From an uncultured Anaerolinea sp. (GTDB lineage: Bacteria; Chloroflexota; Anaerolineae; Anaerolineales; Villigracilaceae), in NCBI GenBank assembly GCA_964517905.1, contig CAZFDL010000001.1:294-64293 (forward strand): a DNA stretch of 64,000 nt, given 5' to 3'. How positions within the stretch are numbered: the first letter of the stretch is position 1; every line of letters starts with the position of its first letter. Both the position numbers and the translations under genes were made by a program. This document shows, piece after piece, positions 14,990-42,121 of the stretch. The notes beneath the pieces are model-generated. The model was not told the DNA's origin and ran no database searches. It was given only the letters and a program-made list of their open reading frames with translations.

Positions 14990-14992
14990 GGT

Positions 14993-19050: not shown

Positions 19051-19051
19051 C

Positions 19052-20797: not shown

Positions 20798-22484
20798 CAT
20801 TCTTCGCGTATTGACACCACCCGTATTTCCCGAGCAGGAAAACAAGACGCGTGCAGCGGGCTACGTCCATTGGATCTCGTTGCTTTTCATGGCGGCGATT
20901 CTCCTTTTCATTTTGGTTTCCAAGATTCTTGACGGCGTCATCGCGTTCAACCTGTTCGACGCTACACTGATTGGCATACTCCTGGGCATCTACGCGATCA
21001 CGTCGGCGTCGCGCGCGGGATATGTGAGTCAAGCCGGTGCGTTACTGGTCACGATCCTTTGGCTGGCAGTCAATGGCACAGCCCTTTTTGGAGCCGGCGT
21101 TCGGGATACATCGTTCATTGCAAATTTCGCAGTCTTGCTGGCGGCTGGGCTATTGGTTGGACGGAGAGCCGCGGTGGCGCTGTCCGCGTTCACGATTGCG
21201 GCAGGCTTCGGGTTAGCTTACGCGGAAATTCTAGAAATTTCTCCAACAGTGTATTCGCCTGATTCTCCACTGATCATCATGGCGGAGATGGCGGCCATTT
21301 TCATCATATTCGGCTTTTTTATCTTTTGGTTGATCAAAGGCTTGGAGCTCGCCATTGAAAGAGTCCGGGGTGCTGCTGACGAGTTGGAGGCCGCTAACGT
21401 TGATCTGAAGGCCGCGCGGGTACGGCTTGAACAAAACCAACACGCGCTGATCGAGGCGAACAAACAGCTGAAGCAGCGCGCCGATCGCATCGGCGCCATC
21501 GCAAATATATCCAAGACGATTACACTGGCACAGGAGTTGGGTCGCCTGCTTCCCTTCGTGGTAACGACCATCAGCGAACGATTCAACTACACCCACGTGG
21601 GCGTTTTTCTCCTCGATGAAACACGGGAGAATGCACTATTACGCGCTTCGAGCAGTGATGAGGGACTGCGTCAGATTCGCCAAAAACATCGCGTATTGGT
21701 CGGCTCGCACGATGCGATTGGAATGGTTACCCAGCGTGGTGAGGCACTAATCGCCGATCGGAAGGTTTCCGACATTCAATCGGACCGACCTGATCTAACT
21801 ATTGCACGCTCGGAACTCGTGTTGCCCCTCAAAGTTAGAGAGCTTGTCATCGGCGCATTGGATATTCATTCCGATCGACAGGATGCCTTCACACAGGACG
21901 ATGTATCGACATTGCAAATCCTTGCCGACCAAGTTGCCATCGCAATTCAGAATTCACGCTCCTCCGAACAGGCGCGGGACGCCTTGCAGCAAGCTGAGGT
22001 CGTCTCGCGTCAACTGACCAGGAGGGCATGGGCCGAGTATTCCGCAGTACAGGACCATATCGGTTATCGCTACGACGGCATAAAGCCGGAGCCACTCATG
22101 GAATCTGTGCACCTCGTCAATAACGAAAAACACCTGAATATCCCGGTTACATTGCGAGGGCAGGTCATCGGCAGATTGAAATTGAATCCTACCGAACCTT
22201 CACGGCAATGGACCGAGGATGAAATCGCGCTGGCGGAAGCAACAGCTGAACGCGTTGCAATCGCACTGGAGGGCGCACGCCTGCTTGACGATGCGCAGAA
22301 ACGCGCACAACGCGAATCGTTCCTCTCGGAAGTTTCATCGAAGCTTGGTGCATCCTTCCAATTGGATTCGATCTTACGGGACACGGTCGAAGAACTTGGA
22401 CAGACGTTCCGCAATGCAACCGTGTCCTTTCAATTGGTAAAACCAGCCTCCGCATCTGCGGAAGAACGCGCGGACGGAGACTGA
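20787..22484 (+). CDS. Sensor 5: PPVF-type multi-TM domain, coiled coil, GAF, split-GAF tail
   Basis: PPVFPEQENKTRAA; TMs; GAF; tail; 11-nt overlap. Confidence 0.88.
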   Translation: MWISILRVLTPPVFPEQENKTRAAGYVHWISLLFMAAILLFILVSKILDGVIAFNLFDATLIGILLGIYAITSASRAGYVSQAGALLVTILWLAVNGTALFGAGVRDTSFIANFAVLLAAGLLVGRRAAVALSAFTIAAGFGLAYAEILEISPTVYSPDSPLIIMAEMAAIFIIFGFFIFWLIKGLELAIERVRGAADELEAANVDLKAARVRLEQNQHALIEANKQLKQRADRIGAIANISKTITLAQELGRLLPFVVTTISERFNYTHVGVFLLDETRENALLRASSSDEGLRQIRQKHRVLVGSHDAIGMVTQRGEALIADRKVSDIQSDRPDLTIARSELVLPLKVRELVIGALDIHSDRQDAFTQDDVSTLQILADQVAIAIQNSRSSEQARDALQQAEVVSRQLTRRAWAEYSAVQDHIGYRYDGIKPEPLMESVHLVNNEKHLNIPVTLRGQVIGRLKLNPTEPSRQWTEDEIALAEATAERVAIALEGARLLDDAQKRAQRESFLSEVSSKLGASFQLDSILRDTVEELGQTFRNATVSFQLVKPASASAEERADGD

Positions 22485-22516
22485 GTTGGTGAAAACTAAT
22501 TTGTACACGCAAACGA

Positions 22517-24202
22517 ATGAATATGAAAAGCGTCTTTCGTAAAACACTTGCTTCGCCCGTGTTTGCAGACGATGATAAAAAGTCTCGCTCTGCGAGCTTT
22601 ATCAATCTGCTTGCATTGGGCGGCGTTCCAATCCTTGTGCTCTTGATCAGCGCCAGAACCCTTGCGGGGACGGGCGCGTTGTTGGGAACTACAAATCTGA
22701 TTCTGGCAGCCGTTATATTTATCCTAATCATCGCATGGTTCGTGATGCGCTTGGGATGGATAACACTCGCAGGGCATTCGCAACTGTTGTCGATCTGGCT
22801 TGCTACGACATTGCTGGCGCTCACGGGTGGCGGAATCGGCGGGAATATTTTTCTCGGTTATTTTCTCGTATTGCTCCTGGCGGGGTTGCTCTTGGGGTGG
22901 CGTCCCGCTGTCGGTTATACCCTGGCGAGCATTCTAGCGTTGTTTACTCTCGCTGGTGAAGAATCTCTGGGTACTGTAATCGAAGGGAGCATACTTTTCG
23001 CGTTAGGAGCATTTTTCCTTTACCTGATCATTAATGGCCTGGAAAATGAAATTGGAAGGGCAAAAACGGATGCAGGTATGTTATGGAAGCGAATTCAACA
23101 ACTCTTGGAATATCGTGATGCTTTGAAAAACCAGGAGGAAGAGCGGACCGCCGTGCTCGGCAAACGCGCCGCCCAGCTTGAGGCCATTGCCGAGTTTGCC
23201 CAGTCGATCGCGCAATTGGAAAACCCAGATAAAATCTTCGCAGCCACAACAAATCTGATCAGCGAACGCTTTGGCTATTATCACGTGGGAATCTTCTTGA
23301 TCGACCGCCACCGTGAATTCGCGGTCCTCCAGGCCGCGAACAGCGCTGGAGGCAAAAAGATGGTTGAACGCGGGCACCGACTCAGGCTCGGAACCGGCAT
23401 AGTTGGCTTTGCCGCGCAGACCAGCAAACCCCGCCTCGCGCTGAATGTCGGGGAGGATGCAGTTTTCTTCAACAATCCCGACCTCCCCCACACCCGTTCC
23501 GAGGTCGCTGTCCCCTTGAAGTACGGAGACAGCCTGATCGGAGTCTTGGATGTGCAAAGCACAGAAGTAAGTGCATTCTCGGAAGATGACTTTCAAGTCC
23601 TTGGGACGCTTGCCAACCAATTGGCGATCGCGATCGAGAACGCACGGCTTCTCGCCGAGGCGCGTACCGCCGCCAGTCAGGTGCAAGAGGTCTACAACGA
23701 GTTCGTTCGCACCCAGTGGACTCGTACGGGCGAACGTTTGGATTATGCGGGTTATCGTTATAACGCCGGGAGGATCGAGATCCTTGAATCTCCAAACAAT
23801 GCAGACGCCGCTCCGAATTCGGGCACAAGCAGCCAGACCGGCGATTCAACCCGTCCGCCGGAGCCGAGGCGTGGAAGAATCGCTGTCCCGGTGAGGTTGC
23901 GCGGTGAAGTGATCGGAATGTTGAATGTTGAATCGAACGATCCGACAAAATCATGGAGAACGGATGAGATCAGCCTCATGGAAGCGGTGGCAGAACGGGC
24001 AGCGCTGGCTATGGAGAATGCACGTCTGTTTCAAGATGCCCGCCGGCGCGCAGCGAAGGAACGCATGATCGCGGAGGCAACATCACACATCAGCAGTTCG
24101 ATGAACATCGAGAACATTCTTGAGGCAACTGCCACGGAACTCGAGCGTGTGCTCGGCGGTTCCGAGGTATTGATCCGATTCGCCAGCAAGGATTCGCCAT
24201 GA
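22517..24202 (+). CDS. Sensor 6: PPVF-type multi-TM domain, coiled coil, GAF, split-GAF tail
   Basis: SPVFADDDKKSRSA; TMs; GAF; tail. Confidence 0.88.
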   Translation: MNMKSVFRKTLASPVFADDDKKSRSASFINLLALGGVPILVLLISARTLAGTGALLGTTNLILAAVIFILIIAWFVMRLGWITLAGHSQLLSIWLATTLLALTGGGIGGNIFLGYFLVLLLAGLLLGWRPAVGYTLASILALFTLAGEESLGTVIEGSILFALGAFFLYLIINGLENEIGRAKTDAGMLWKRIQQLLEYRDALKNQEEERTAVLGKRAAQLEAIAEFAQSIAQLENPDKIFAATTNLISERFGYYHVGIFLIDRHREFAVLQAANSAGGKKMVERGHRLRLGTGIVGFAAQTSKPRLALNVGEDAVFFNNPDLPHTRSEVAVPLKYGDSLIGVLDVQSTEVSAFSEDDFQVLGTLANQLAIAIENARLLAEARTAASQVQEVYNEFVRTQWTRTGERLDYAGYRYNAGRIEILESPNNADAAPNSGTSSQTGDSTRPPEPRRGRIAVPVRLRGEVIGMLNVESNDPTKSWRTDEISLMEAVAERAALAMENARLFQDARRRAAKERMIAEATSHISSSMNIENILEATATELERVLGGSEVLIRFASKDSP

Positions 24203-26733
24203 GCGCCGACCAGATCATTCTCATTCTCTCGGCACTCATCGGCTTGGGAATCCTGCTGGTAATAGCGGAGCCCATCAGACCCCTTCGAAATATCTCCTTG
24301 CGCGCGCGCGTGGCTCTCGGCATTTTAGCCTCCGGTGGAGTCGCCATTGGAATCGTATCAATTTTCGCTGCAAGTAGTGCGGTTCAAATCACCGACTCGC
24401 TATCCCAACGACTCGAAACCAGCGTTCAACTCCTTGCGGAGGAACAGCTGATCAATTCCGTGAGCACCGAGGCTGGCAATGCAAACCAGTCCTTCGAGAA
24501 GATTGAAAGTGATATTGTGGAATTGGCTACCCATTGGAGCGGGCTTTATGCGGAACAGAATGCACTCGGTGAAGGCGGATATTGGGACGCCTCCACGGAA
24601 ATGGTGCAACTGGAGGGCGGACATTATGGGAATTCAGCGGACGATCCATCATCTGTTTATGTGCCTGCCAAGATCCGGTTAAGCGAGTCCGTGCTGAAAG
24701 ACCTCAACACATCGGCTTATCTGGATTTCGCCGCACCCTCCACCCTCGCATCCAATCCCAGTGTACTTGCCGTGTATGGAATCGATACTCGCGGCGTCAC
24801 CCGTTATTTTCCCAACATTAACCTGGCGTCTTTGCTACCGCCGGATTTCGATCCGACGCAGCGCGCCTATTACCGAATCACCTCTCCACTCTTCAATCCG
24901 TCCAGGACGGCGCGCTGGGCGATTCCGTATTTGGACGCGGCCGGAGGCGGGCTGGTTGTGACCGTTGCTGCCCCGGTGTATGTCGGCGACACCTTCAAAG
25001 GTATCGTTGCGGCTGACATGCAACTCTCCACGATCACAAACCAGATCGAACACATCAAGATCGGCCAGACCGGTTACGCGTTCATGATCGACGACGCAGG
25101 ACGCATCATCTCCATGCCGTCTGCCGGGTACCAGCTATTCGGCCTCAATCCGGACGATGTCAATTCTGAGGAGTACTTCAAGATCACGTTACTCGGCGCG
25201 GGTCCGCCGGAACTTGTCGAGATCTCCAACCGCATGGTTGCCGGCGGAACCGGTTTGATCATACTTCCCGTGGAGGGTATCGATACGTATCTCGCATTTG
25301 CACCGATACGGTCGAACGGATACAGCGTAGGCATCGTCGTACCCGTGGCTGAACTTCAAACCGCGACCATCACTGCGCGCAACGAAACCCGGACCCAACT
25401 CGAGGCTGCTGCACGAGTCGCCGCCCTCATTCTGGTTGGTTTGTTGCTCGTGGCGGTGTTGGTCAGCCTGCGCCTCAGTCAACGCATCACAGCTCCGATC
25501 CTTAGGTTGACCGAGACGGCGAATAGCATCGTGGCCGGCGACCTCACCGCGACAGCCGCGGCAGAGTCGCGCGACGAGATCGGAACGCTTGCGAAGGCGT
25601 TCAATACCATGACGCGCCGATTACGGGAAACACTCGCAGGACTCGAACAGCGCGTATCAGAACGCACGTCTGAATTGTCCGAAGCCGGCAAGCAGATCGA
25701 ACAACGCGCGGCACAGCTCGAAACGATCGCTCGTGTGGCGCACACAGTAGGCTCGACGCGCGACCTCGATGCACTGCTTCCAGAGATCGCTGCTGCCATC
25801 AGCAGACAGTTCGGCTTTTACCATGTGGGCATTTTCCTCCTTGACCAGCGCCGGGAATATGCTGTATTGAGCGCAGCGAACAGCAAGGGCGGGCAGAAGA
25901 TGTTGGAAAACAACCACAAACTCAAAGTGGGAGAGACCGGCATCGTCGGATTCGTCACAGGCACAGGCAAAGCTCGCGTGGCCCTCGACACGGGTGCGGA
26001 TGCGATCTTCTTCAACAACCCGTTCCTGCCCGAGACGCGTTCAGAGATCGCCCTCCCGCTTCTGGCGGGCTCAGAGGTGATCGGCGCGCTGGATGTGCAA
26101 AGTACCGAGTCGAATGCCTTCGGAGAGCAAGACACGAATCTCCTCTCGATCCTTGCCGACCAGGTTAGCGTCGCGATTCAGAATTCGATGCAACATGAGC
26201 AAACTCAGCGAGCTCTTGCAGAAGCGGAATCGCTTTCACGTCAACTCATTCGTTCCGGCTGGCAGGCTTTTTCGAAGGGCCGGAAGTTGATCGGCATCCG
26301 CCACTCGGGAGCACGGGCGACCTTTCTCTATGCTAAAAGGAATGGCAGGCAAGCCGATGATTCCAAGATCGTTGACAGTGAGTCTTTTTCGAAACCCCGA
26401 GGCGCGCTACTTTCGATTCCCATCAAACTGCGCGGCGAGGTGATCGGTACCGTCGACGTTCGCTCCCCCGGCAACCGCCGCTGGGACCAGGATGAAATGG
26501 ATATCGTCTCGGCCATAATCGAACGAGCCGCACTCGCGCTTGAGAATGCGCGCTTCCTCGAGGAAAGCCAGAAGCGGGTTGCCAAGGAGCAGACCATAGG
26601 CGATATTTCTGCAAAGATTAGCGCCCACGGAACTGTGGAAAACCTGATCAGAACCGCCGCAATGGAACTTAGCCGATCGCTCCCGGGCGCTGAGGTTGCC
26701 ATTCAATTCAATCAGAAGCCGGAGGTTGAATGA
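24199..26733 (+). CDS. Sensor 7: dCache_1-like domain, HAMP, GAF, split-GAF tail
   Basis: FDPTQRAYY..PYLD..VVTVAAPVY..GIVAAD..GQTGYAFMID; HAMP; GAF; ATGA overlap. Confidence 0.9.
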   Translation: MSADQIILILSALIGLGILLVIAEPIRPLRNISLRARVALGILASGGVAIGIVSIFAASSAVQITDSLSQRLETSVQLLAEEQLINSVSTEAGNANQSFEKIESDIVELATHWSGLYAEQNALGEGGYWDASTEMVQLEGGHYGNSADDPSSVYVPAKIRLSESVLKDLNTSAYLDFAAPSTLASNPSVLAVYGIDTRGVTRYFPNINLASLLPPDFDPTQRAYYRITSPLFNPSRTARWAIPYLDAAGGGLVVTVAAPVYVGDTFKGIVAADMQLSTITNQIEHIKIGQTGYAFMIDDAGRIISMPSAGYQLFGLNPDDVNSEEYFKITLLGAGPPELVEISNRMVAGGTGLIILPVEGIDTYLAFAPIRSNGYSVGIVVPVAELQTATITARNETRTQLEAAARVAALILVGLLLVAVLVSLRLSQRITAPILRLTETANSIVAGDLTATAAAESRDEIGTLAKAFNTMTRRLRETLAGLEQRVSERTSELSEAGKQIEQRAAQLETIARVAHTVGSTRDLDALLPEIAAAISRQFGFYHVGIFLLDQRREYAVLSAANSKGGQKMLENNHKLKVGETGIVGFVTGTGKARVALDTGADAIFFNNPFLPETRSEIALPLLAGSEVIGALDVQSTESNAFGEQDTNLLSILADQVSVAIQNSMQHEQTQRALAEAESLSRQLIRSGWQAFSKGRKLIGIRHSGARATFLYAKRNGRQADDSKIVDSESFSKPRGALLSIPIKLRGEVIGTVDVRSPGNRRWDQDEMDIVSAIIERAALALENARFLEESQKRVAKEQTIGDISAKISAHGTVENLIRTAAMELSRSLPGAEVAIQFNQKPEVE

Positions 26734-28454
26734 TCAGAAAATTCTTCAGCCCGCCGGTACTCAGAAGCAGTGAAGATAACTTCCGCGCGCGGTTTATCAA
26801 CGGGTTTGCATGGGCTGCCGTTGGCTTGTTGACCATTGCGCTCATCACGTATCTCTTCGCACCGTCCGGCGACCTTACCATCGCAATATTGTCTGGTTTG
26901 ATTGTCGTGCTTCTCACCGCGCTCTTCACCTTGAGGCGCGGCAATGTATCCGCGAGCGCCTGGATGATCGTCGGGCTGGGCTGGTTAGGGATCGGTATTC
27001 AAGCACTCACGGCGGATGGCGTAAAGGATGTTATTGTCGTAGCCTATATCGCCATTGGACTTCTGGCAAGCATCGTAATCAGTCATCGCGCCGGCAGTTT
27101 GGTGATTCTCGCCGGCATTGCCGCCGTCGCCGTGCTCTCACTTCGCGAAGCATATGGACTGTTCGTACCGCGTGAACAAGACCCAATTGCGTACGGACGC
27201 GACCTGGGATTCATCTTCTTTGCGATTTTGATTCTGATTTATTTCAACACCACCAGCCTGCGCGATGCAATCACCCGCGCCAACAAAAGCGAGGAGAGTT
27301 TGCGCGCCTCCAACGCATCACTGCGGGAATTGAACCAGACGCTCGAGGAGCGTGTTGTCACCCGCACGACGGAATTGGAGCAGGCCAATAGGCGGTACGA
27401 ACGCCGCGCACGACGGTTCGAGGCGATCGCGCAAGTGGCGCGCGCAGCCGCGGCGAACCAAACCCTCGAAGACCTCCTGGCTTTGCTCGTGCAAGTGATC
27501 GGCGAGAAGTTCGAGTATTATCACGCCGGAATTTTTCTGCTGGATGACAACCGCGAGCACGCAGAACTTCGAGCCGCGAACAGCGAAGGCGGGCGACGCA
27601 TGTTGAGCCGAAATTATCGAATTCATATCGGGCAAACCGGTATCCTCGGCGTGGTTGCCGCCACAGGTGAACCCCGCATCGCTCTGGACACAGGAGCTGA
27701 CGCGGCTTTCCTCAACGACCCCGACCTCCCCGACACACACTCACAGATGGCGCTGCCGCTCAAAGCCGCGGGAGTGGTGATCGGCGTGCTGGATATCCAG
27801 AGCACGGAACCGAACGCATTCTCGGAGGACGATATCGAAGTGCTTTCCACACTATCCGATCAGGTCGCCACCGCAATTCAGAACGCCCGTTATTACGAAT
27901 CGACTCAGGAATTGGTGGAGGAAGCGCAACGCGTGACCGGAGCATATCTGCAAGATTCGTGGCACACTCTCCAGGCACAGGAACGCTTGATTGGATTCGT
28001 TGCCGATGGCACGTCCGTCAAGCCGTCCGATCAACCCGTTGATAGCGCGCTGTTGTCAAAAGTCTCATTGCGCGACCAGCCCTTCGTCGAAAATGGCGAG
28101 AAGCCCCGCATCGCCGTACCGCTGCGCCTGGCTGGGAACGTGGTTGGGATCCTTAACATTAATCTTGATGAAGATCATGAGTGGGAGAACGACGAGATCG
28201 ATATCGCAAAAGCGGTCGCCGACCGTCTGTCGCTCGCGCTTGAAGCCGCGACACTGCTTGAGACGACACAAAAACGCGCCGAGATCGAGCGGCTTACAGC
28301 GGACATCACCGGCAAGATCGGCTCCACTACCCAGTTCGATTCCATCCTGCGGACGGCGGCGGAGGAATTGAGCCACGCATTCGGCGGATCTGAGGTATTG
28401 GTCCAGATCCAGCCGTCCTCAAATTCACACCGATCCGAGCATACGACTTCATGA
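26730..28454 (+). CDS. Sensor 8: PPVF-type multi-TM domain, coiled coil, GAF, split-GAF tail
   Basis: SPPVLRSSEDNFRA; TMs; GAF; tail; ATGA overlap. Confidence 0.88.
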   Translation: MIRKFFSPPVLRSSEDNFRARFINGFAWAAVGLLTIALITYLFAPSGDLTIAILSGLIVVLLTALFTLRRGNVSASAWMIVGLGWLGIGIQALTADGVKDVIVVAYIAIGLLASIVISHRAGSLVILAGIAAVAVLSLREAYGLFVPREQDPIAYGRDLGFIFFAILILIYFNTTSLRDAITRANKSEESLRASNASLRELNQTLEERVVTRTTELEQANRRYERRARRFEAIAQVARAAAANQTLEDLLALLVQVIGEKFEYYHAGIFLLDDNREHAELRAANSEGGRRMLSRNYRIHIGQTGILGVVAATGEPRIALDTGADAAFLNDPDLPDTHSQMALPLKAAGVVIGVLDIQSTEPNAFSEDDIEVLSTLSDQVATAIQNARYYESTQELVEEAQRVTGAYLQDSWHTLQAQERLIGFVADGTSVKPSDQPVDSALLSKVSLRDQPFVENGEKPRIAVPLRLAGNVVGILNINLDEDHEWENDEIDIAKAVADRLSLALEAATLLETTQKRAEIERLTADITGKIGSTTQFDSILRTAAEELSHAFGGSEVLVQIQPSSNSHRSEHTTS

Positions 28455-30766
28455 ATCGAATTCTTCAATCACTGGATAATTGGTTTAAGGGTCTCACCTA
28501 CCCTAGAAAATTTACCGTGATCACGGTCATCTTCCTATTACCCGTGATCGCGTTCCTGCCGCTGATCGGCAATGAAGTCGACCGAATTGATCGATACGGC
28601 ACCGGCGAACTCTTCGGCACCCTTTATACGCGTCCGCTTTGGAAAACCGCGAACGATCTGTACCTGCATCAGGTTCTATCCGCCAAGGTTGTCAATGGCG
28701 AGATGGAATCGGGGGCGCTCAAGACATTGCAGGCGACAATCGACACAGGCTTCGATGAGATCGAGTCTCGTCAACGACAAGAAGTCCTCTCCACGCCCTA
28801 TCAAAGCGAAGTAGCCGCCTTCCGGACACGCTGGATCAGTATCCGAGATTCGCTCCCGAATGCCGACGCGGCGGAGGTACAGGCGCAGCATCAGGAGTTA
28901 ATCCGCGACTTCAACTCCTTGATCATCCGTGTGGGCGAGGATTCGAATCTTGTTCTTGACCCCGACCTGGACACGTATTACTTGATGGATATCGTGCTTT
29001 TCGAAATACCGGAAAACCAGACGTTGATTTTCGAAATTTACAAATTGGCGAGCCCGGCGCAAGCCGACCAACCTCTTTCTGCGCGCGAACAGGAACAGAT
29101 AGCCAACCAGATGGAAGCCATCCAATCGAACATGGCGCAGATCGACCGCAAGATCGGTGTTGTACTCGCTAACAACATCAACGGAGACTTGGAGCCCATT
29201 ATTCTCCCCGCGTGGGACGATTACAAGGCACAAGTTCAGGCTTATGCGGACTTCGTTCAAGATCACATACTCGCCGGATCGCCAGACGGCTCCGTTTCTA
29301 TGAATCTTCAAGCTTTCGAGGTTATGCATAAGGCTAATCAGGATTTCTATACAGCTGCCTCGACCACACTTCAGACCGGCGTGTCAGCGCGCGTGAACTC
29401 ATCCATCCTTCGTTTTTACCCCATCGCTCTCGTTGTTTTAGCGAGCATTGCTGGCGCATTCCTGTTGGGGCAAAGTATCATGAGCTCAATTAGTCAACCT
29501 CTGGCACAGTTGATCGAAGCTTCTCAGCAACTCGCGGCAGGTGATCTATCCACCCGCATCTCAGTGCAAGGCTCTGGCGAGCTCGAAAAGGTGTCGAGGG
29601 CTTTTAACAAGATGGCAGCTGATCTGGAAACTGAGAAAACATCCCTTACCCACCATGCAGAAGAATTGGAGACCGCCAATCAGATCAACGCGAACCGCGC
29701 TCGAGAGTTTCAGTTTATCAGCGAGATATCTCAGATTATTGCGCAGGAACAAAAACTCGATATCCTCCTGCCTTTGATCACCCAGCTTGTAAGCGAAAAA
29801 TTCAATTTCTATCATGTTGGCATATTCCTCCTGCACGAGAGTCACAAATACGCCGTGTTGCAAGCCGCCAACAGCGAGGGCGGGCAACGTATGTTAAAGC
29901 GAGGTCATCGCCTTGAACTTGGGACCGGGATCGTAGGCAATGTTGCCCGCTCAGGTTCCTACCGCGTCGCCTCCGATGTTGGATCTGATGCCACATTCTT
30001 CGACAACCCTGACCTGCCTGCAACCCGTTCCGAAATGGCGATTCCTTTGCAGACGCGTGGTGTGACGATCGGCGTGCTGGATGTACAAAGCACTCGGCCG
30101 GGAGAATTCAACGAAAACATCGTCAATACTTTGAGCATTCTTGGCGATCAGATCGCCATTGCCATCGAGAACGCCCGGCTTTTTGCCAGGACGCAACAGG
30201 CGTTGAACGAATTGCAGGCCGTCTACAACCAATATCTACAGAAAGAATGGCAGGCATTCCGCAACCGGTCTGCCCATATCGGTTACCATCATTTGGGCAC
30301 GAGCGGCATGCTGCTCCAGTCTCCGATCGAATCGGATGAGTTTCAGAAAGTCCTTCAGCGTGGCGAAAGAACTGTCGGCAATAAAAATGGCTCGGAGTCC
30401 GAGCCCAGCATGACAGTTCCAATCAAATTGCGGGGCGAGACCATCGGTGTTTTAAACATCAAATCTCCGGAAAAGAGCCGCGAGTGGAGCCGGGATGAGA
30501 TCAACATGATCGAATCCGTTGCGCAACGCCTTGCGCTAGCACTGGAGAATGCCCGGCTGTTCGAAGAAACGAACCGGCGCGCAGAGCGCGAACGGCTGGT
30601 TTCAGAGATCACTGGAAAGATTCGCAGCGTGAACGACCCGCAAGAGATGATCGATACTGCCCTTGTGGAATTGCGAAACGTGTTGGGCGCGAGTCGCGTC
30701 CAGGTGATTCCGCGGCTGCCACACGGAAACACTACTCAAAACAAAACGAACAGCGAGGAAGCATGA
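28451..30766 (+). CDS. Sensor 9: helical extracytoplasmic domain (LDPDLDTYYL motif), HAMP, GAF, split-GAF tail
   Basis: Two TMs flanking a helical region of about 280 aa; HAMP; GAF; tail; ATGA overlap. Confidence 0.88.
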   Translation: MNRILQSLDNWFKGLTYPRKFTVITVIFLLPVIAFLPLIGNEVDRIDRYGTGELFGTLYTRPLWKTANDLYLHQVLSAKVVNGEMESGALKTLQATIDTGFDEIESRQRQEVLSTPYQSEVAAFRTRWISIRDSLPNADAAEVQAQHQELIRDFNSLIIRVGEDSNLVLDPDLDTYYLMDIVLFEIPENQTLIFEIYKLASPAQADQPLSAREQEQIANQMEAIQSNMAQIDRKIGVVLANNINGDLEPIILPAWDDYKAQVQAYADFVQDHILAGSPDGSVSMNLQAFEVMHKANQDFYTAASTTLQTGVSARVNSSILRFYPIALVVLASIAGAFLLGQSIMSSISQPLAQLIEASQQLAAGDLSTRISVQGSGELEKVSRAFNKMAADLETEKTSLTHHAEELETANQINANRAREFQFISEISQIIAQEQKLDILLPLITQLVSEKFNFYHVGIFLLHESHKYAVLQAANSEGGQRMLKRGHRLELGTGIVGNVARSGSYRVASDVGSDATFFDNPDLPATRSEMAIPLQTRGVTIGVLDVQSTRPGEFNENIVNTLSILGDQIAIAIENARLFARTQQALNELQAVYNQYLQKEWQAFRNRSAHIGYHHLGTSGMLLQSPIESDEFQKVLQRGERTVGNKNGSESEPSMTVPIKLRGETIGVLNIKSPEKSREWSRDEINMIESVAQRLALALENARLFEETNRRAERERLVSEITGKIRSVNDPQEMIDTALVELRNVLGASRVQVIPRLPHGNTTQNKTNSEEA

Positions 30767-31548
30767 CATATTCAATCGCAGTTTCAAACGAAAAGGGCGG
30801 TGTGGCCAAGACCACAACTACGCTCTCGCTTGGTGCCGCCCTGGCTGAGCTTAACTCTCGCGTCCTTTTGATCGACCTCGACCCGCAAGCGAACCTGAGC
30901 CTTGCGCTTGGGCTGGAAACCGGCGAGGCGGAAATCACTTCCGCCAATGTAATGATCGAAAATACGCCGATAAAATCGGCCATTCGCAAGACCGATGTGG
31001 CGAATCTCGAACTCATTCCGTCGAACTCTCGCATCGAAAGCGCGGAGCAATACCTCCCCATGCGCAGTAATTATCTCACGACGCTCCGGCAAGCCATTCT
31101 CGCAGGCACATTGAACTACGACTATATCTTCTTCGATTGTCCTCCGGCGCTTGGTGCGATCACGCTCAATGCCCTCTCCGCCTCCGATCTGCTTGTGATT
31201 CCCACCCAAGCGGAATACTTTTCAGCGTATGCGTTGAGGAACATGATGGGCTCAATCCGTCGCGTTCGGCAGGAAAGCAACCCCAATCTTGCATATCGCA
31301 TTCTCGTTACCCTGCTGGATCGCAGGAACCGAACCCACCGCAATATATTCGAGCAGTTGCAGACCACGTTCGGTCAAGGCGTTTTTACCACCGTCATCGA
31401 GATCGATACAAAACTCAGAGAAAGCCCCATCGCCGGAATGCCGATCACTCAGTATCGCCCTACAAGCCGGGGCTCGCAACAGTATCGCGTCCTTGCCCAG
31501 GAGTTAATCGAATATGTCAAAGAAGAAACCAGCCGACAAACGGCTTGA
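30763..31548 (+). CDS. parA: Orphan ParA/Soj family ATPase
   Basis: Deviant Walker A KGGVAKTT, IDLDPQAN, FDCPP; no parB in the window; ATGA overlap. Confidence 0.92.
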   Translation: MTYSIAVSNEKGGVAKTTTTLSLGAALAELNSRVLLIDLDPQANLSLALGLETGEAEITSANVMIENTPIKSAIRKTDVANLELIPSNSRIESAEQYLPMRSNYLTTLRQAILAGTLNYDYIFFDCPPALGAITLNALSASDLLVIPTQAEYFSAYALRNMMGSIRRVRQESNPNLAYRILVTLLDRRNRTHRNIFEQLQTTFGQGVFTTVIEIDTKLRESPIAGMPITQYRPTSRGSQQYRVLAQELIEYVKEETSRQTA

Positions 31549-34500
31549 AAAACTTTTTCAAAACATAACTCCTGAAGAAACAACCTCCGAACCGAGGCCT
31601 GCCGGCCGCCAGCGGGTGGTGGAAAAGGTGGATATCCCACCGTCGGTTCCCCGCGCGTCAAAGAGATCAGTTTCACCTCCGACGCGTCCCCTGGAGTTGA
31701 TTCCGAGTCCCGCTCAACAGAGTCCTGAAATCTCGCTTGCGTTTCAAGTGGGACAAAATAATTGGGCGACGTTGCAAGTGCTGGATGAAAACCACGAGAA
31801 GAAATGGACTCCAGACGATGAGTTGCTCGTCAGACAAGTGGTGGACCAACTCTCGCTCGCACTGGAAAATGCCCGCTTATTCAAGGAAACGGAAACACGA
31901 GCACGAGAAGTCTCCGTTTTGAACGAGGTCGGACAGGCGCTTGCCGCGACACTGAATATCCAACAGATCATTGAGACCACATATAACGGCATCTCGCGGC
32001 TGTTCGATGCCAGGAACTTCTACATTGCGCTCTACGACGAATCAACGAACGAGATCCTTTTCCCTCATAATGTGACCGAATCCGTGGTGGATCGCTCCAT
32101 CACCCGCCTGCCTTTGGACAAGGGCATCACTGCACACATGATTCGTACGCGTGAGAGCGTCCTGATCTCGGATGGGAGCGATACGTGGATGCTCGCGCGC
32201 GGAGAAACTCCGGTCGGCGAGTCGGCACAATCTTTCCTCGGCGCGCCGCTCATCGCAGGCGACAAGGTCCTTGGCGCTATTGCGCTGCAGGATTACGAAA
32301 TTTCGCACAAATATGATGAGCACGACCTAAAACTCCTGACCTCATTCGCCAGTCAGGCTGCGATCGCGATCGAAAATGGGCAGCTATTCGAGAAAGCGAC
32401 GGCAAGTCAGGCAACACTTTCCGAAGCACTGCGTATCGCCAGGATCGGATACTTCGAGATCGACGTGGTTACCCAAGTCATAACGATCACCGATGAGTTG
32501 TTCGCCATCCTCAATACCTCCGTGGAACAGGAAGGAGGGCAGCAATTTCGTGCGCGCGATGCGCTGCGTAAGTTCGTCAGCGCGGATGATTACACGGTCG
32601 CGATCAAGGCTTACGAAAAGGCGATCAAGACCGGTAAACAGCGAAACGAGGTGGCCGTGGAGGCGCGATATCGCACCCGCGACGGCCGAACAATCTGGGT
32701 CAACACCACCTACAAGGCCGAACTCGACGAGAAGGGACGCGTTTACAAAGTCGCAGGATCGTCACAGGACATCACCGAACGAAAAATCAACGAGTTGATC
32801 CAGGCTGCGATCACAGAGATATCAGAGGCAGCATTAACAGCATCGGACTTGTCGGGATTAATCCAGACAGTGCATAAGGCGGTGGGCACTCTCGTACCGG
32901 CGCGCAATTTCTACATCGCGCTGTACGACCCCCAAGCCGACCTAATGACGTTCCCCTATTACGTGGACGAACATGATGCCACTATGCCGCCCCAAAAACT
33001 TGGAGGCGGACTCACCAGTTACGTGATCCGCACTGGAAAAGCGCTGCGGGCGACACCGGAGATTTACGCCGAACTGGCTCAAGCGGGCGAAGTGGTCAGC
33101 GGAGGCACCGCCGGAGCGGATTGGCTGGGCATTCCGTTGCGGAACGAATCAGCGGTCCGCGGCGTACTGGCGGTTCAATCCTACGATAACGCGGTGCGAA
33201 TTACGCAGCACCACCAGGAAATTTTAACCATCCTGGGTACCCAGGTATCGGCTTCCATCGAACGGTTACTGGCGAGAGAAGCGCTCGCCAAGTCGGAAGC
33301 CGATCTGCGCGCCCTCTTTTCCTCAATGCAGGATGTGGTACTAGTGGTTGATAAAGACACACGCTATATCCGCATCGCACCAACCAATCCATCGCGTCTG
33401 TTCCGCCCCCCGGATGAATTGCTCGGCAGGAGGATGGACGAATTATTGCCCCCCGAAACACATGAACAGTTTCGCGCAGCAATCCATCGTGCGCTTCAAT
33501 CGAACGAGGTGGTTCAGATCGAATACCAATTGCCAATCGAAGGACACCTATATTGGTTCCTCGCCAACCTCTCCCGGCTCAACGAGAACGAAGTATTTTG
33601 GGTCGCCCGTGATATTACGGAGCGCAAGAAGTCCGAAGAGGCGCTCCAAAGGCGAAATACTTACCTGGCTATCTCCGCTGAGATCGGGAAGTTGGTCACT
33701 TCTACGCTCGACCTGAACAAGATCTTTTCAGAGACCGTGATTCGTGTGAAAACGGGTTTTGATGTTTATTTCGCCGCTCTCTACAGCATCGAAGAAACTG
33801 GTTTCAACGCCGTTTTACGCGGGGCAACCGGGGAAGCCGGTGATCAAATGATCGCGGCAAAACATTCGGTGACAATCGGATCACAGAACATCGTTGGCTT
33901 GGTGGCCGACACCGGAACCGCCAGGCTGATCGAAGATGTGAGCACGGAACCTTTGTATCAACCCAATCCACTCCTGCCTGAAACTCGCTCCCAGGTGGTG
34001 ATTCCCCTTCGGATCGGTACGCGCATCGTAGCGGTACTTGAGATTCACTCCGACCGAGTGCATGCCTTCACGGAAGACGATATCTCGGTGCTTCAACTGC
34101 TAAGCGACCAGGTCGCAGTGGCGATCGACAATGCCCGATCATATGAATTGTCACAACAACTGATCAAGGACCTGCGCGAAGTGGACAAATTAAAGAGTCA
34201 GTTCCTTGCAAATATGAGCCACGAACTTCGGACACCGTTGAATTCCATTATCGGGTTCTCGCGGGTAATCCTCAAGGGCATCGATGGTCCTATCACAGAT
34301 TTGCAGCAACAGGATCTAACCGCGATCTACAATTCAGGCCAACACCTGCTAGGCTTGATCAACGACGTACTCGATCTTGCCCGCATCGAAGCCGGCAAAA
34401 TGGAATTGAACTTCGAGGAAGTCAACCTGGCCGACATGATACAAAGCGTCCTTTCGACCGCCAAGGGTCTCGTTAAGGAAAAACCGATTCAGCTGGTTGC

Positions 34501-35647
34501 CAACGTTCCAACTGCCACACTGGCCGTGCGCGGCGATGCCATGCGCATTCGCCAGATATTTATCAACCTGCTTTCGAACGCCGCCAAATTTACAGATGAA
34601 GGCACGATCACGGTTGCGGCACAGAACCAGAAGGGACCCGATGGAATGACAGAGGTCATCATACGAGTTACAGACACCGGACCGGGTATTTCGAGTGAGG
34701 ATCAAGAAAAACTATTTAAAGCGTTTTCGCAAGTGGATGGTTCAGCCACGCGCAAAAGCGGCGGTACCGGGTTGGGTCTCTCGATCTGTTCCAATCTCGT
34801 TCAACTCCATGGAGGGCGCATTGGCGTCACCAGTGAAGCGGGCTATGGTTCAACCTTCTGGTTCACCCTGCCTCCCTTTCATCAACCTCTGGATGAAATT
34901 CCGGCTGATCGGAAGATCATCGTTGCCATCGACGATGATCCCAAGGTGATCAGCCTTTATGAAAGATACCTCGCTCCGCAGGGATATTATATTGTTCCAT
35001 TCATCGAAGCCAAAGGCGCGAAGGAACGGATCGCGGCCATCAAGCCGATTGCCATCACGCTGGATGTAATGATGCCGAACGTCGACGGCTGGACGCTTCT
35101 TTCGGACTTGAAATCTGATCCAGCGACCCGTGACATCCCAGTTATCATCTGCTCGATCCTCGAACAGGCCGATAAAGGCTTCAATCTGGGCGCGTCTGAT
35201 TACCTCATCAAACCCATCCTCGAGGAGGATCTTGTTCACGCCTTCAAACGGTTGGATAAAAAAGGCGAGATCCGCAATATCCTGGTGATCGATGACAATG
35301 CGGACGATCGCAGGCTCATACAAAAGATCCTGGAGGAGCATGGAAAGTATGATGTTACCGTAGCAGACGGAGGCCGTCAGGGTTGGGATGCAATAAAGGC
35401 AACTCCTCCTCACGCTGTCATCCTCGATCTGTTTATGCCCGATTGGGATGGTTTTGTCGTTCTCGAAAAGCTTCGTGACGATCCTGCCCTCCGTAATCTG
35501 CCAGTGCTGGTCATCAGCGGAGGCGGTTTAAACCCGGACCAGCAGAAAAAAATGCAGGAGTTTGGAAAGCGCCTGCTCATTAAGGGAACGTTGAAGGAAA
35601 GCGAACTTATCTCAAGCATCGAGCAAGCGTTGATGGCTCTTGGTTGA
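31514..35647 (+). CDS. Hybrid histidine kinase: N-peptide, half-GAF, GAF, PAS, GAF, PAS, GAF, HisKA, HATPase, two REC domains
   Basis: FLANMSHELRTPLNSIIGF, NLLSNAAKFT, DTGPGI, GGTGLGL; PAS ends QDITERK and RDITERK; two intact receivers; no TM segment. Confidence 0.95.
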   Translation: MSKKKPADKRLEKLFQNITPEETTSEPRPAGRQRVVEKVDIPPSVPRASKRSVSPPTRPLELIPSPAQQSPEISLAFQVGQNNWATLQVLDENHEKKWTPDDELLVRQVVDQLSLALENARLFKETETRAREVSVLNEVGQALAATLNIQQIIETTYNGISRLFDARNFYIALYDESTNEILFPHNVTESVVDRSITRLPLDKGITAHMIRTRESVLISDGSDTWMLARGETPVGESAQSFLGAPLIAGDKVLGAIALQDYEISHKYDEHDLKLLTSFASQAAIAIENGQLFEKATASQATLSEALRIARIGYFEIDVVTQVITITDELFAILNTSVEQEGGQQFRARDALRKFVSADDYTVAIKAYEKAIKTGKQRNEVAVEARYRTRDGRTIWVNTTYKAELDEKGRVYKVAGSSQDITERKINELIQAAITEISEAALTASDLSGLIQTVHKAVGTLVPARNFYIALYDPQADLMTFPYYVDEHDATMPPQKLGGGLTSYVIRTGKALRATPEIYAELAQAGEVVSGGTAGADWLGIPLRNESAVRGVLAVQSYDNAVRITQHHQEILTILGTQVSASIERLLAREALAKSEADLRALFSSMQDVVLVVDKDTRYIRIAPTNPSRLFRPPDELLGRRMDELLPPETHEQFRAAIHRALQSNEVVQIEYQLPIEGHLYWFLANLSRLNENEVFWVARDITERKKSEEALQRRNTYLAISAEIGKLVTSTLDLNKIFSETVIRVKTGFDVYFAALYSIEETGFNAVLRGATGEAGDQMIAAKHSVTIGSQNIVGLVADTGTARLIEDVSTEPLYQPNPLLPETRSQVVIPLRIGTRIVAVLEIHSDRVHAFTEDDISVLQLLSDQVAVAIDNARSYELSQQLIKDLREVDKLKSQFLANMSHELRTPLNSIIGFSRVILKGIDGPITDLQQQDLTAIYNSGQHLLGLINDVLDLARIEAGKMELNFEEVNLADMIQSVLSTAKGLVKEKPIQLVANVPTATLAVRGDAMRIRQIFINLLSNAAKFTDEGTITVAAQNQKGPDGMTEVIIRVTDTGPGISSEDQEKLFKAFSQVDGSATRKSGGTGLGLSICSNLVQLHGGRIGVTSEAGYGSTFWFTLPPFHQPLDEIPADRKIIVAIDDDPKVISLYERYLAPQGYYIVPFIEAKGAKERIAAIKPIAITLDVMMPNVDGWTLLSDLKSDPATRDIPVIICSILEQADKGFNLGASDYLIKPILEEDLVHAFKRLDKKGEIRNILVIDDNADDRRLIQKILEEHGKYDVTVADGGRQGWDAIKATPPHAVILDLFMPDWDGFVVLEKLRDDPALRNLPVLVISGGGLNPDQQKKMQEFGKRLLIKGTLKESELISSIEQALMALG

Positions 35648-35691
35648 CGTGACCATGAACAATCCATAATGGAATAGGACACTGACCACAC

Positions 35692-37368
35692 ATGTTATTT
35701 GTCATACGATGTCTTGATTGCGGGCATGCCGCGCCTTTCATGCCGCGCTCGATGCATTGCCCAAACTGCAACAGCCAATGGCGCGAAGCGGAATACGATC
35801 TGAAGGAAGTGGCCAACACATTTCCGTCACAACTTCCGAACCGCAGGTTTGACCTTTGGCGGTATCGTGAACTGCTTCCGATCCATACACTGAACCCGAC
35901 TTTGCAGCTTGGAGAGGGAGGCACGCCCCTCATCAAGGCTGCAAACCTGGGAAACATGCTGGGTCTGCCCAATCTCTATATCAAAGATGAGAGGCAAGGA
36001 CCAACTTCATCCTTCAAAGACCGGCAAGCGGCAGTTACGATCGCGGCGCTTAAAGAAGGCGGCGTAACCGAGATGGTAGCCGCATCGACGGGCAATGTTG
36101 CCATCGCCTTATCGGCGTATGCTGCGCGGGCTGGCATCAAATTGTGGGCGTTTGTCACCAGCCTCGTCCCCGGCGTGAAGATGCGTGAGATCGCACTTTA
36201 TGGAAGTCAGGTGGTGAAGATCACTGGCTCGTACGACCAGGCTAAACAGGTCGCCGCGGAGTTCGCCCGCCAACGCGGTTTGTACCAAGATATGGGTGCC
36301 CGCACAGTGACAGCAGTGGAGGCGATGAAAACGATCGCCTTCGAAATCGCAGAACAATTGACGATGGAGGAAGGAGGCGTACCCATACCGCTGGGAGCGA
36401 GTCCAAAATGGAAAACTCCCGACTGGTATCTTCAAGCTGTTAGCGGTGGGATGGGTCCGCTCGGCGTGTATAAAGGCTTTCGCGAACTGAAACAACTCGG
36501 CCTAATCGATCGTATCCCGGCGCTGGTTCCCATTCAGGCGGAGGGTTGCGCACCGATGGTCGATGGTTGGAGGAAGGGTCTTGAAAAAGCAGAACCAGTC
36601 CTCTCGCCGAACACACGGATCGAAACGCTCGCCACGGGCGACCCCGGCAGAACCTACACAATGCTACGCCAACAGGTGATCGAAACCCATGGAACCTTCG
36701 AAAGCGTCTCTGATGATGAAGCCTTCCGTGCCATGCACGTACTCGCCAAACTCGAGGGTATCTCGGCTGAACCCGCCGCCGCCGTGGCGTTCGCGGGTTT
36801 GTTCAAACTGGTCCGGGCAGGAGTGATCAAATCCACAGACACGGTGGTGGTCAACTGCACCGGGCACACGCTGCCTGCGGAACAATTTTTGTTCGATGAG
36901 AATTGGACGCGCGAGGTGGATTACCCCGGCGCAATGGCTCAATCGGAAACACCTCAAGAAGGTTTGCTGGCCGCGCTCAATAACGTGACCCCGAACCGCT
37001 TCCCGCGCGTCGCCGTTGTGGACGACAGCGCGGAGGCGAGGCGATTAATCCGGCGCATCCTGCAATCACAAGGCGATTTCGAGATCTTTGAGGCAGTGGA
37101 TGGGAGTGAAGCCATCGAGCTTGTGAAGCGCGAACATCCTGATATTGTCATTCTCGACCTGATGATGCCTGAAGTGGACGGCTTTGCCGTCCTTGATGCG
37201 TTGCGGAGTGATCCGGAAACGGCAAATATACCGGTGATCGTTGCCACCGCAAAGGAGTTGACCGTCAACGAAAAAAGCCGGTTGCAGGGGCAGATCCAAT
37301 CGCTGATGCAAAAAGGCGATTTCTTGAACGATGAGTTCCTGGATGAAGTCCGCGCACTGATCCGATAA
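35692..37368 (+). CDS. Threonine-synthase-like PLP enzyme with N-terminal Zn ribbon and C-terminal receiver domain
   Basis: CLDC..CPNC; LGEGGTPL; PTSSFKDR (PLP lysine); ASTGN; C-terminal VVDD..ILDLMMP..TA..QKG. Confidence 0.9.
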   Translation: MLFVIRCLDCGHAAPFMPRSMHCPNCNSQWREAEYDLKEVANTFPSQLPNRRFDLWRYRELLPIHTLNPTLQLGEGGTPLIKAANLGNMLGLPNLYIKDERQGPTSSFKDRQAAVTIAALKEGGVTEMVAASTGNVAIALSAYAARAGIKLWAFVTSLVPGVKMREIALYGSQVVKITGSYDQAKQVAAEFARQRGLYQDMGARTVTAVEAMKTIAFEIAEQLTMEEGGVPIPLGASPKWKTPDWYLQAVSGGMGPLGVYKGFRELKQLGLIDRIPALVPIQAEGCAPMVDGWRKGLEKAEPVLSPNTRIETLATGDPGRTYTMLRQQVIETHGTFESVSDDEAFRAMHVLAKLEGISAEPAAAVAFAGLFKLVRAGVIKSTDTVVVNCTGHTLPAEQFLFDENWTREVDYPGAMAQSETPQEGLLAALNNVTPNRFPRVAVVDDSAEARRLIRRILQSQGDFEIFEAVDGSEAIELVKREHPDIVILDLMMPEVDGFAVLDALRSDPETANIPVIVATAKELTVNEKSRLQGQIQSLMQKGDFLNDEFLDEVRALIR

Positions 37369-38384
37369 TGACGGAACTAAACGAAACACCGGACAGTGTC
37401 AACGAGGTTACCTACCCTTCGTTGATGTTGAAATCCCGATTAATGCATAAAATGAAAATCCGGGGAATTAATGCTGCGCTCCTCTCCGCAGTGTTTCTCG
37501 GTATGGCGCCGGTCCTAGGCAAGGTGGCCATGGGGGCAGACAAATTCACGCCCTTGGCGGTCGTAGCATTGCGCACCAGCATAGCAGCACTGCTTCTTGT
37601 ACTCATTCTTGCGATCATTAATCGCCGCGCTTTATATATCTACCCGGCAGCCTTGTACATCACCGCTCTCGCCGGCGCGATCAACGGCGTTGGCTCCATC
37701 TTTTTCTACATTGGCTTGAGTCGATTGAACGCGAGCGTTGCGCAATTGTTATATTCGCTATATCCATTCTTTGTGGCATTTTGGCTCCAACTGGACCGGC
37801 AACCCCCCACTCGTCTTACGATATTCAGAATCGGAATTGCGATCGTCGCCGTGTTTTTCCTAACACAGGGCACAACCGGGACCGTTGATCCTGTCGGCGT
37901 GACTTTGATGCTGGTCGCGGCGGCCTTGTATGCGCTTCACCTTCCGATCAATCAACGCGCCTTGTACGATGTTCCCGCGCCAACCGTTACTGTTTATACA
38001 TTGCTAGCAATGAGCGCGGTCGTGGTACCCGCCTACCTGATCTTCGACGGCAGCCCGCCCGGGGAGTACGCGCCGTGGACGCCCTTGCTGATGCTCACTG
38101 CAGTTACTTTCTTCTCGCGCCTGACTCTCTTCCTCGGCGTCAAACACATCGGCGGGATGCAGACGGCTCTACTCGGATTGGCGGAACTGATCGTCGCCAT
38201 CGCGTTCAGTCACTTCCTTTTGGGCGAAAAGTTCACTGGGCTTCAATGGGTGGGCATGGCGGTCTTGGGCTTCAGTCTTCTCTTGGTTTGGTTCGAAAAG
38301 CCTCCTTCGCATCCACCACCCACTCACGGTCTACTCGGTTGGCTTCAACCGCCAGACTTCCCTAAAGATTTTTACAAGCACTAA
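37368..38384 (+). CDS. DMT/EamA family transporter
   Basis: About ten TMs in two repeats, LLGE motif; TAATG coupling (start may lie at a later Met). Confidence 0.85.
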   Translation: MTELNETPDSVNEVTYPSLMLKSRLMHKMKIRGINAALLSAVFLGMAPVLGKVAMGADKFTPLAVVALRTSIAALLLVLILAIINRRALYIYPAALYITALAGAINGVGSIFFYIGLSRLNASVAQLLYSLYPFFVAFWLQLDRQPPTRLTIFRIGIAIVAVFFLTQGTTGTVDPVGVTLMLVAAALYALHLPINQRALYDVPAPTVTVYTLLAMSAVVVPAYLIFDGSPPGEYAPWTPLLMLTAVTFFSRLTLFLGVKHIGGMQTALLGLAELIVAIAFSHFLLGEKFTGLQWVGMAVLGFSLLLVWFEKPPSHPPPTHGLLGWLQPPDFPKDFYKH

Positions 38385-38418
38385 GAAACCCTTTCGAAAA
38401 TCCGTTATACTCTCCAGC

Positions 38419-39267: not shown

Positions 39268-39454
39268 AACCGAAGATGGCGATGATCACGCCAAGATGCA
39301 GGAACAGATTGCTCCCCGTGATCACATTCAAGCCAAAGATGAAGGGCAGTATAAAGTTGATCACCACCAATAACATACCGACAATCGGCAACAAGCCCTT
39401 ACGATGGGCAAAATAATTCGATGCGTTGTCGATCAAATGCGACAGCCATTTCAT
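39245..39454 (-). CDS. Small two-TM membrane protein
   Basis: ATGA overlap with hflX; two hydrophobic helices. Confidence 0.65.
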   Translation of the reverse strand: MKWLSHLIDNASNYFAHRKGLLPIVGMLLVVINFILPFIFGLNVITGSNLFLHLGVIIAIFGFMLAWAL

Positions 39455-42088: not shown

Positions 42089-42121
42089 GACTTGGCTCAA
42101 TCTACTCGCGCTTTTATTGTA

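Follow-up and report, generated by a model that had tools for sequence, protein, structure and literature searches.

A threonine-synthase-like PLP enzyme fused to a response-regulator receiver beside a sensor kinase in Anaerolineae

In the reaction of threonine synthase (ThrC), the released phosphate steers the chemistry to threonine, and in the Thermus enzyme the substrate phosphate is bound by residues that we take to be T88, N154, S155, R160 and N188. Bacterial ThrC dimers have a C-terminal strand-helix tail that reaches the partner subunit. The ThrC family is known to have been repurposed, since it includes the cysteate synthase CapA2 (TIGR03844; PDB 9K3C), a ThrC-derived enzyme with another reaction (cysteate synthase forms cysteate out of phosphoserine and sulfite), and a cyanobacterial ThrC that also deaminates threonine (PMC12172450); MetM is listed in PMC13759103. 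Enzymes are likewise known as outputs of response regulators: CheB and PleD combine an intact receiver with an enzyme beside a kinase, and fusions of receivers (REC) to metabolic enzymes are described in the accessible portion of PMC5847659, in which none of the terms threonine, pyridoxal, PALP and ThrC appears.

Here we analyse an open reading frame that joins a ThrC-like PLP domain to a receiver, encoded in a 64,000-nucleotide stretch of DNA (the window) from an uncultured Anaerolinea sp. of the Chloroflexota. It shares its fold with ThrC (TIGR00260; PDB 1V7C/1UIM, 2ZSJ, 2D1F, 6CGQ/6NMX and 2C2B; Z 39-46), together with the SFKDR lysine, the STGN loop, the K116 and E-K helix equivalents and the S/T partner of the PLP ring; unlike ThrC, it has the equivalents of T88, N154/S155, R160 and N188 replaced, reads HTxPxE in place of GLKD, carries a C-terminal receiver, and lies in a kinase operon instead of beside thrB or hom. 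It differs from CheB- and PleD-type regulators in having a C-terminal receiver and, as its output, a PLP enzyme of fold-type II. The surrounding genes recall a chemosensory system (MCP arrays, CheA, CheB, ParA-type positioning) in that numerous receptors lacking an output domain are combined with a single kinase, a ParA ATPase and an enzyme-bearing regulator, but the receptors here are GAF-based and the kinase is of the HisKA type; neither the MCP signalling domain (PF00015) nor CheW (PF01584) was found in this 93%-complete genome, and CheW was not found in G114, a genome in one contig, or in G243. Although enzyme-output response regulators are already known, the literature searched describes none with a PLP amino-acid enzyme in that role, and no description of the PALP-REC fusion or its system was found in full texts; supplementary tables or response-regulator censuses could list it. 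We judge it slightly better than even that the protein is a response regulator, likely phosphorylated by the kinase at D489, that switches a ThrC-derived domain whose reaction is likely an elimination or replacement and whose substrate is likely an L-amino acid distinct from O-phosphohomoserine.

Architecture and distribution of the fusion gene

Within the fusion ORF (Table 1), Pfam recognises PALP at residues 72-391 (E 5.5e-64) and Response_reg at residues 440-533 (E 1.5e-19). An earlier note made from the sequence had described an intact PTSSFKDR lysine and a complete C-terminal receiver, encoded directly downstream of a kinase, and each of these was borne out: the lysine is K109 (codon 36016-36018) of a single 558-aa frame, all five characteristic receiver residues are present, and the hybrid kinase gene ends 44 nt upstream. 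The zinc ribbon of the same note stands as regards its four cysteines, from which zinc binding is presumed. A predicted monomer model of the fusion has a pLDDT of 84 and a pTM of 0.70, with pLDDT below 50 at residues 405-435.

Table 1. Features of the fusion gene, its operon and the receiver-less relatives. Positions are those of the window unless a locus is named.
Feature	Position	Strand	Remarks
PALP(ThrC-like)-REC fusion ORF, 558 aa	35692..37368	+	Single open frame; Pfam, homologues
CxxC-x12-CxxC ribbon (C7, C10, C23, C26)	35710..35769	+	Zinc binding presumed from four Cys
Fold-type II PLP domain	35905..36864	+	K109, STGN 132-135, T390; Pfam, alignment, structural match
PLP domain, family-specific residues			Q112, K185, D200, Q248, S251, P256, T315, H392, T393
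PLP domain, position 208			A208, versus Arg in canonical ThrC
Linker, including conserved PxEGLLxAL helix (424-431)	36865..37008	+	Low model confidence at 394-398 and 405-435
Receiver domain	37009..37365	+	D444, D445, D489, T519, K541; D489 is the predicted phospho-acceptor, codon 37156-37158
Receiver helix-1 face			L452/R455, almost invariant
Soluble hybrid histidine kinase	31514..35647	+	GAF/PAS inputs, HisKA H903, HATPase, two receivers (D1184, D1305)
Ten tandem GAF sensor genes, no output domain	10933..30766	+	Inputs include TM, dCache, HAMP; gaps -59 to +32 nt
Near-match to dCache_1 amino-acid-binding motif	24847..25020 (end approximate)	+	In sensor 24199-26733
ParA-family ATPase	30763..31548	+	Between receptors and kinase
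EamA/DMT transporter	37368..38384	+	Start possibly a later ATG, 37443 or 37452
Receiver-less loci (Cyanobacteriota)	L156:2599-3882, L236:9200-10459, L237:9313-10506, L238:9072-10283, L240:9048-10316, L241:5239-6504		

The fusion is real, conserved and widespread. Both Pfam domains are present in all homologues among the 120 matches listed (86-93% identity), those named by organism being Anaerolineae or Chloroflexi, and the enzyme-receiver junction is spanned, with zero differing letters, by contigs belonging to two public runs that come from separate studies (X3 record 3, covering 36611-37306, and X8 record 29, covering 36356-37235). In a sample of 301 genomes of the class, 149 match the query at E<=1e-60; their scores fall into two groups, one of ThrC-like genes outside the family (E around 1e-61 to 1e-73, over residues 4-394 only) and one of the fusion family, which at E<1e-85 is found in 90 genomes, a few of them as partial matches. 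A phylum-wide sample gave 34 matching genomes out of 301 at 1e-75, eight of them outside the class. With a degenerate lysine-motif pattern, at least 120 loci were found in a collection of species genomes, and among the 120 matches listed 118 are Chloroflexota by record title, one is a 'bacterium' and one a Pseudanabaena. The PALP-plus-REC architecture, a search for which the earlier note had suggested, recurs: the 80 motif-found loci with flanks (a count that leaves out 40 short loci) comprise 75 single-ORF fusions, three genes cut by contig ends, one frameshift and one receiver-less gene, L156. The bridging contigs, the two-domain homologues, the single-ORF loci and the positive class genomes together rule out the assembly artefact absent from relatives that the earlier note had raised.

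Among 5929 candidates, no longer fusion of the enzyme domain (978-2790 aa) was found at E<=1e-40, which is weak evidence; open frames of 800-1400 aa owe their length to unstarted upstream frame, the genes themselves being of about 700-720 aa with two receivers. Two fast-evolving relatives near the query, P0279 and P0284, have SIGLG/SVGLG in the glycine loop, and the acidic pair of the P0279 receiver appears replaced; they are possibly decaying or switched-off copies.

The receiver and its likely kinase

Every one of the 153 full-length members retains D/E444, D445, D489, S/T519 and K541. In helix 1 of the receiver R/K455 is kept in 153 and L452 in 152 of them, and in the PxEGLLxAL helix of the linker G424 and L429 are each kept in 138. 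Conservation is higher in the enzyme domain, where identity to the query has a median of 0.60, than in the receiver, where it is 0.47 (153 proteins).

The adjacent kinase has an intact H-box and an Asp in both of its receivers. Of the 76 motif-found loci with at least 1.2 kb of upstream sequence, 67 have a same-strand histidine kinase gene upstream; the nine without one include the receiver-less L156. A search of the genome with a profile built from the fusion family itself gave 55 receiver matches, of which the kinase's own second receiver scores best after the query, sharing 9 of 14 helix-1 identities with the fusion receiver. Judged by sequence, the adjacent hybrid kinase is the likely cognate kinase of the fusion receiver. 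Phosphotransfer from it to D489 appears very probable, and is reasonable to propose because a kinase lies upstream in most loci, its H-box is intact, and the nearest receiver is the kinase's own. A further histidine kinase in the window, at 40820-42100 on the opposite (-) strand, has a HisKA-HATPase region 36-42% identical to REC-kinases that follow the fusion in several other families and gives no receiver match. In one family (f15) the fusion occurs as an orphan without kinase or receptors (L044:6450-8057, L073:10226-11827), and 10 of 11 genomes of this family keep the EamA subfamily elsewhere in the genome.

We consider it fairly likely that the state of the receiver controls catalysis. The route may be the C-terminal strand-helix tail of the ThrC-like domain, on which the receiver would hang; the monomer model, in which the linker has low confidence, does not show a path by which the receiver would act on the active site. 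An alternative, which we hold to be rather unlikely, is that the enzyme is active whatever the receiver state, with the receiver serving as a phosphate sink or as a localiser to the receptor-kinase assembly, or that the PLP domain is instead an input reporting an amino acid to the phosphorelay. Such an arrangement is consistent with a C-terminal receiver on a poorly ordered linker in the monomer model, with the closeness of this receiver to the terminal receiver of the kinase, with the long C-terminal extension of 20 of the 153 members (a second receiver in all seven that were scanned), and with the existence of receiver-less forms; yet the fusion has been kept over dozens of families with the conserved PxEGLLxAL helix, a sink needs no fusion, and stand-alone receivers adjoin the fusion gene in one branch of the family (branch B, below).

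The enzyme domain compared with threonine synthase

We compared active sites in an alignment of 154 fused and 14 receiver-less members with 28 other ThrC-like proteins; the Thermus numbering comes from another alignment. The PLP lysine, N135 and S/T390 are kept in all 154 fused homologues, and the four ribbon cysteines in all 154 as well as in all 14 receiver-less members; four-Cys ribbons also occur in 17-21 of the 28 other proteins and are not special to the fusion family. Q112, Q248, S251 and T315 are invariant in the fusion family and are found in none of the 28. Position 208 is Arg in 7/7 canonical ThrC and 13/13 PRK08197-type proteins; in the 154 fused proteins its four commonest residues are Ala (95), Ser (33), Gly (16) and Thr (4), Arg not being among them, and no Arg was found there in the alignment of the 14 receiver-less members. 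The T88 equivalent across the fused proteins is Val in 110, Ala in 43 and Lys in one. Family-wide, NSxNPxR has become DxGxxxxxA, GNAGN has become SGG[MLI]G and GLKD has become HTxPxE, and at the canonical substrate-phosphate sites, the residues of which are kept in 7/7 canonical ThrC, the query has V136, the loop DMGARTVTA, A208 and G252. The Thermus K116 equivalent is kept in the query as K163. The basic residues that remain are the invariant K163, the near-invariant K185, R/K at 204 in 133 of 154 and R/K at 209 in 49 of 62, and the pocket of the fusion enzyme may still bind an anion.

Profile and structure searches place the domain near ThrC. The query lies below the cut-offs of all six threonine-synthase models (156.5 versus 167.1 for TIGR00260), and its best NCBIfam score, 258.6 bits, is to PRK08197 (NF006050), under the cut-off of 303. 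PRK08197 members resemble it in the N-terminal four-Cys ribbon and the Gly at the N188 position but differ in keeping Arg208, in their FKARG/TAGN/PTGGGTG motifs and in forming a separate clade; a true member lies downstream in some branch-B operons. Some homologues of the query do pass these models, namely the receiver-less P0122 and P0149 for both PRK08197 and TIGR00260, and the fused copies in G013 and G110 for TIGR00260. A structural search with the model returned Arabidopsis ThrC 2C2B first (Z 46.4) and CapA2 9K3C second (Z 43.1; 366 residues, the ribbon among them, aligned at rmsd 2.2), and deaminases, serine dehydratase and TrpB gave Z 33-35. Relative to cysteate synthase, which is without a receiver, the query reaches 120.3 bits of a required 324.9 at 22-24% identity, and TIGR03844 was exceeded in none of five genomes. 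In the enzyme tree, the fusion family forms a long separate branch with full support.

A canonical thrC adjoins thrB on contig C226 (TIGR00260 282.9 bits; thrB 271.5 bits) and hom of the source genome is on contig C135, so the step from O-phosphohomoserine to threonine is already filled in this genome; a separate, higher-scoring thrC is likewise present in 5/5 near-complete relatives. The separate thrC that the earlier note had thought worth looking for is thus there, and its caution that the fusion may not be a true threonine synthase is probably right, given this gene set and the rebuilt substrate pocket. We consider it very probable that the PALP-REC fusion is not the housekeeping ThrC. A third ThrC-like gene of the genome (G000:C14:2171-3442; L002) encodes a four-Cys ribbon without the Arg208 equivalent and lies directly 3' of an ORF that by eye resembles a molybdenum hydroxylase large subunit; relatives of this gene occur in four of five other genomes (L250, L251, L252, L254).

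One may postulate instead that the fusion acts as an additional threonine synthase under signal control, its phosphate site rearranged; EamA would then export threonine or a pathway intermediate. The best sequence and structure matches are threonine synthases, the top structural match (Arabidopsis ThrC) being an allosteric enzyme solved with SAM, some members exceed the TIGR00260 or PRK08197 cut-offs, and basic residues persist at 163, 185 and 204. Nevertheless, we regard this scenario as very unlikely in view of the sub-threshold scores of the query, the canonical thrC present in every genome checked, the long separate branch and the replacement of all three canonical motifs; moreover, no thrB or hom lies beside the fusion in this window, and none was noticed in the scanned neighbours.

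Stand-alone proteins of 395-426 aa with the family signature, traced from L156, occur in 4 of 71 genomes of one cyanobacterial order and in 5 of 351 of that phylum; one comes from a cultured strain named by its source, Pseudanabaena sp. PCC 6802 (P0260, WP_225902657.1). They keep the active site of the fused family (alignment, n=14), which indicates that the enzyme needs no receiver to be retained; the C-terminal HTxPxE motif is lost in L236 and L237. Neither a kinase nor a shared neighbour family was found near the receiver-less genes (eight loci read, eight neighbours scanned); the gene contexts are unrelated and point to no pathway. The EamA subfamily has no match in the five genomes with the receiver-less form, and a canonical, higher-scoring thrC is present in all five. 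Receiver-less proteins are nested in the fusion clade in two trees and basal in a third; the log-likelihood of the nested tree is 4.7 higher, a difference that the AU test does not decide (p-AU 0.65), and secondary loss of the receiver in the cyanobacterial forms is mildly favoured. A search of all 50%-representatives gave nine deeper stand-alone relatives with a QAVSGGxGP/TGxP signature, six of which keep Arg at 208, which indicates that the enzyme subfamily predates the fusion and that the loss of Arg208 falls close to where the fused clade arose. Retention of the domain without a signalling partner argues that it is a functional enzyme acting on an ordinary metabolite; to some degree it also speaks against a private signal.

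Operon, companion genes and possible function

Fifteen co-directional genes, spaced by -59 to +44 nt, run from 10933 to 39267 and encode the ten GAF sensors, ParA, the kinase, the fusion, EamA and a glutamate racemase (Murl). In 59 hand-chosen loci of up to 20 kb, in four of which the gene caller missed the anchor, the arrangement receptors-(ParA)-kinase-fusion is seen again in many families; the racemase is seen, among these 59, in this window only. A promoter and terminator scan of 30000-40000 gave counts equal to those of shuffles. All ten sensors end in a truncated GAF tail, which comprises the initial two helices and strand of one more such domain; at the kinase N-terminus (about residues 70-125), just the final two strands and helix of a GAF are present. 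The idea that a sensor tail lends a strand to complete a GAF finds no support in a monomer model, where the tail folds into two helices and forms no strand. A near-match to the dCache_1 amino-acid-binding motif described in PMC8915833 occurs in 4/10 dCache sensors, including sensor 24199-26733, where F stands for Y121 and Y for W128 and the equivalents of R126, Y144 and D173 are present; these four sensors lend slight support to the possibility that the product is sensed by the system's own receptors.

The earlier note had read a TAATG overlap as coupling of the fusion to a DMT transporter. The overlap is real, with the fusion stop TAA (37366-37368) overlapping an in-frame ATG of the EamA gene, but it is unique to this genome among 74 locus rows (duplicates included), in 13 of which EamA is convergent to the fusion, and translational coupling was therefore rejected as functional evidence. 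The true EamA start may be 37443 or 37452, as homologous matches mostly begin 17-39 residues into this ORF. The link between transporter and fusion itself holds by genome: the EamA subfamily (E<=1e-40) occurs in 72 of the 301 class genomes, 71 of which have the fusion, even when the genes are unlinked. At this threshold 19 of the 90 fusion genomes have no EamA match, and at 1e-25 EamA is found in 92 genomes, 15 of them without the fusion. Because the 301 genomes are kin, such co-occurrence counts, including those for receptor tails below, overstate independence.

Companion genes differ between two branches of the enzyme tree. In branch B (support 99 in one tree and 100/98 in another), which often has two receivers, 21 loci contain a GNAT acetyltransferase gene in ten cases and a PRK08197-type, second ThrC-like enzyme in five, never both, and EamA in none; among 38 branch-A loci, EamA is found in 25 and GNAT in none. 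These counts are lower bounds, with one weak second-enzyme label in L096 left out. Each of the three companions acts on small molecules, in keeping with a product or substrate that is diffusible and of amino-acid type, but each may represent a single inherited event. We give an even chance to the proposition that the companion (EamA here; GNAT or the PRK08197-type enzyme in the sister branch) handles the molecule made or consumed by the fusion. SAM methyltransferases (PF04672) are present in 5 of the 38 branch-A loci; they lie between receptors and kinase (L046:5558-8141, three in tandem; L056:7773-8624; L057:8118-8909; L078:5688-6488; L092), where a CheR-like enzyme would sit. Binding proteins of the branched-chain amino-acid type (Peripla_BP_6) occur within two receptor arrays (L056:3249-4655, L058:2764-3987).

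Another possibility is a feedback loop in which a dedicated small-molecule messenger, made or destroyed by the enzyme, would bind to GAF or dCache domains of the system itself and be reset by export, acetylation or breakdown. Receptor-tail arrays are nearly confined to fusion genomes (55 of the 56 genomes with at least four matches carry the fusion), and the three interchangeable companions, the near amino-acid motifs and the binding proteins inside two arrays point the same way; we nevertheless find such a loop highly doubtful, as 35 of the 90 fusion genomes have fewer than four receptor-tail matches, the best PDB match in a similarity search for a GAF ligand was an uninformative E 2.4e-8, and the receiver-less enzymes occur in unrelated contexts. 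In a wider version, the fusion would be at the core of a so far undescribed Chloroflexota signalling system: roughly ten GAF receptors without a kinase of their own would signal to a single kinase, and its output, a PLP enzyme, would make a new amino-acid-derived messenger. GAF/dCache domains of the system, or neighbouring cells of the filament, would read this messenger, and EamA would reset it by export, GNAT by acetylation or the second ThrC-like enzyme by breakdown, according to branch. This version is speculative and appears quite unlikely. That the protein is a catalytically dead scaffold or an assembly artefact is hardly credible: the altered glycine-rich PLP-phosphate loop might suggest the former, but all PLP-anchoring residues are invariant, independent contigs bridge the junction, and 75 of 80 loci are single-ORF fusions.

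For the phosphorylation-switched enzyme that we favour, the sequence of events would be that the sensors signal to the hybrid kinase, which would phosphorylate D489 of the fusion receiver; the phosphorylated receiver would then switch a PLP-dependent elimination or replacement on an amino acid, and the companion gene would move or modify the molecule made or consumed. The reaction would probably be of the ammonia-lyase/dehydratase type or a beta-replacement, acting on a non-phosphorylated or differently charged amino acid. Since a gene for a PLP enzyme with a receiver adjoins a sensor kinase in many Chloroflexota, the signalling pathway likely ends in an amino-acid reaction and not in gene regulation.

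This analysis adds the swap of companions (EamA, GNAT or a second ThrC-like enzyme) and the receiver-less cyanobacterial control. With WP_225902657.1, the chemistry of the enzyme is testable without the kinase, and it offers a natural control for gating. The fusion family, common in Anaerolineae (90/301), is labelled 'threonine synthase' in databases, a label that likely misleads pathway reconstruction. In an operon of ten output-less sensors the fusion is the sole dedicated-looking output, and its reaction would for that reason reveal what this large sensor system does.
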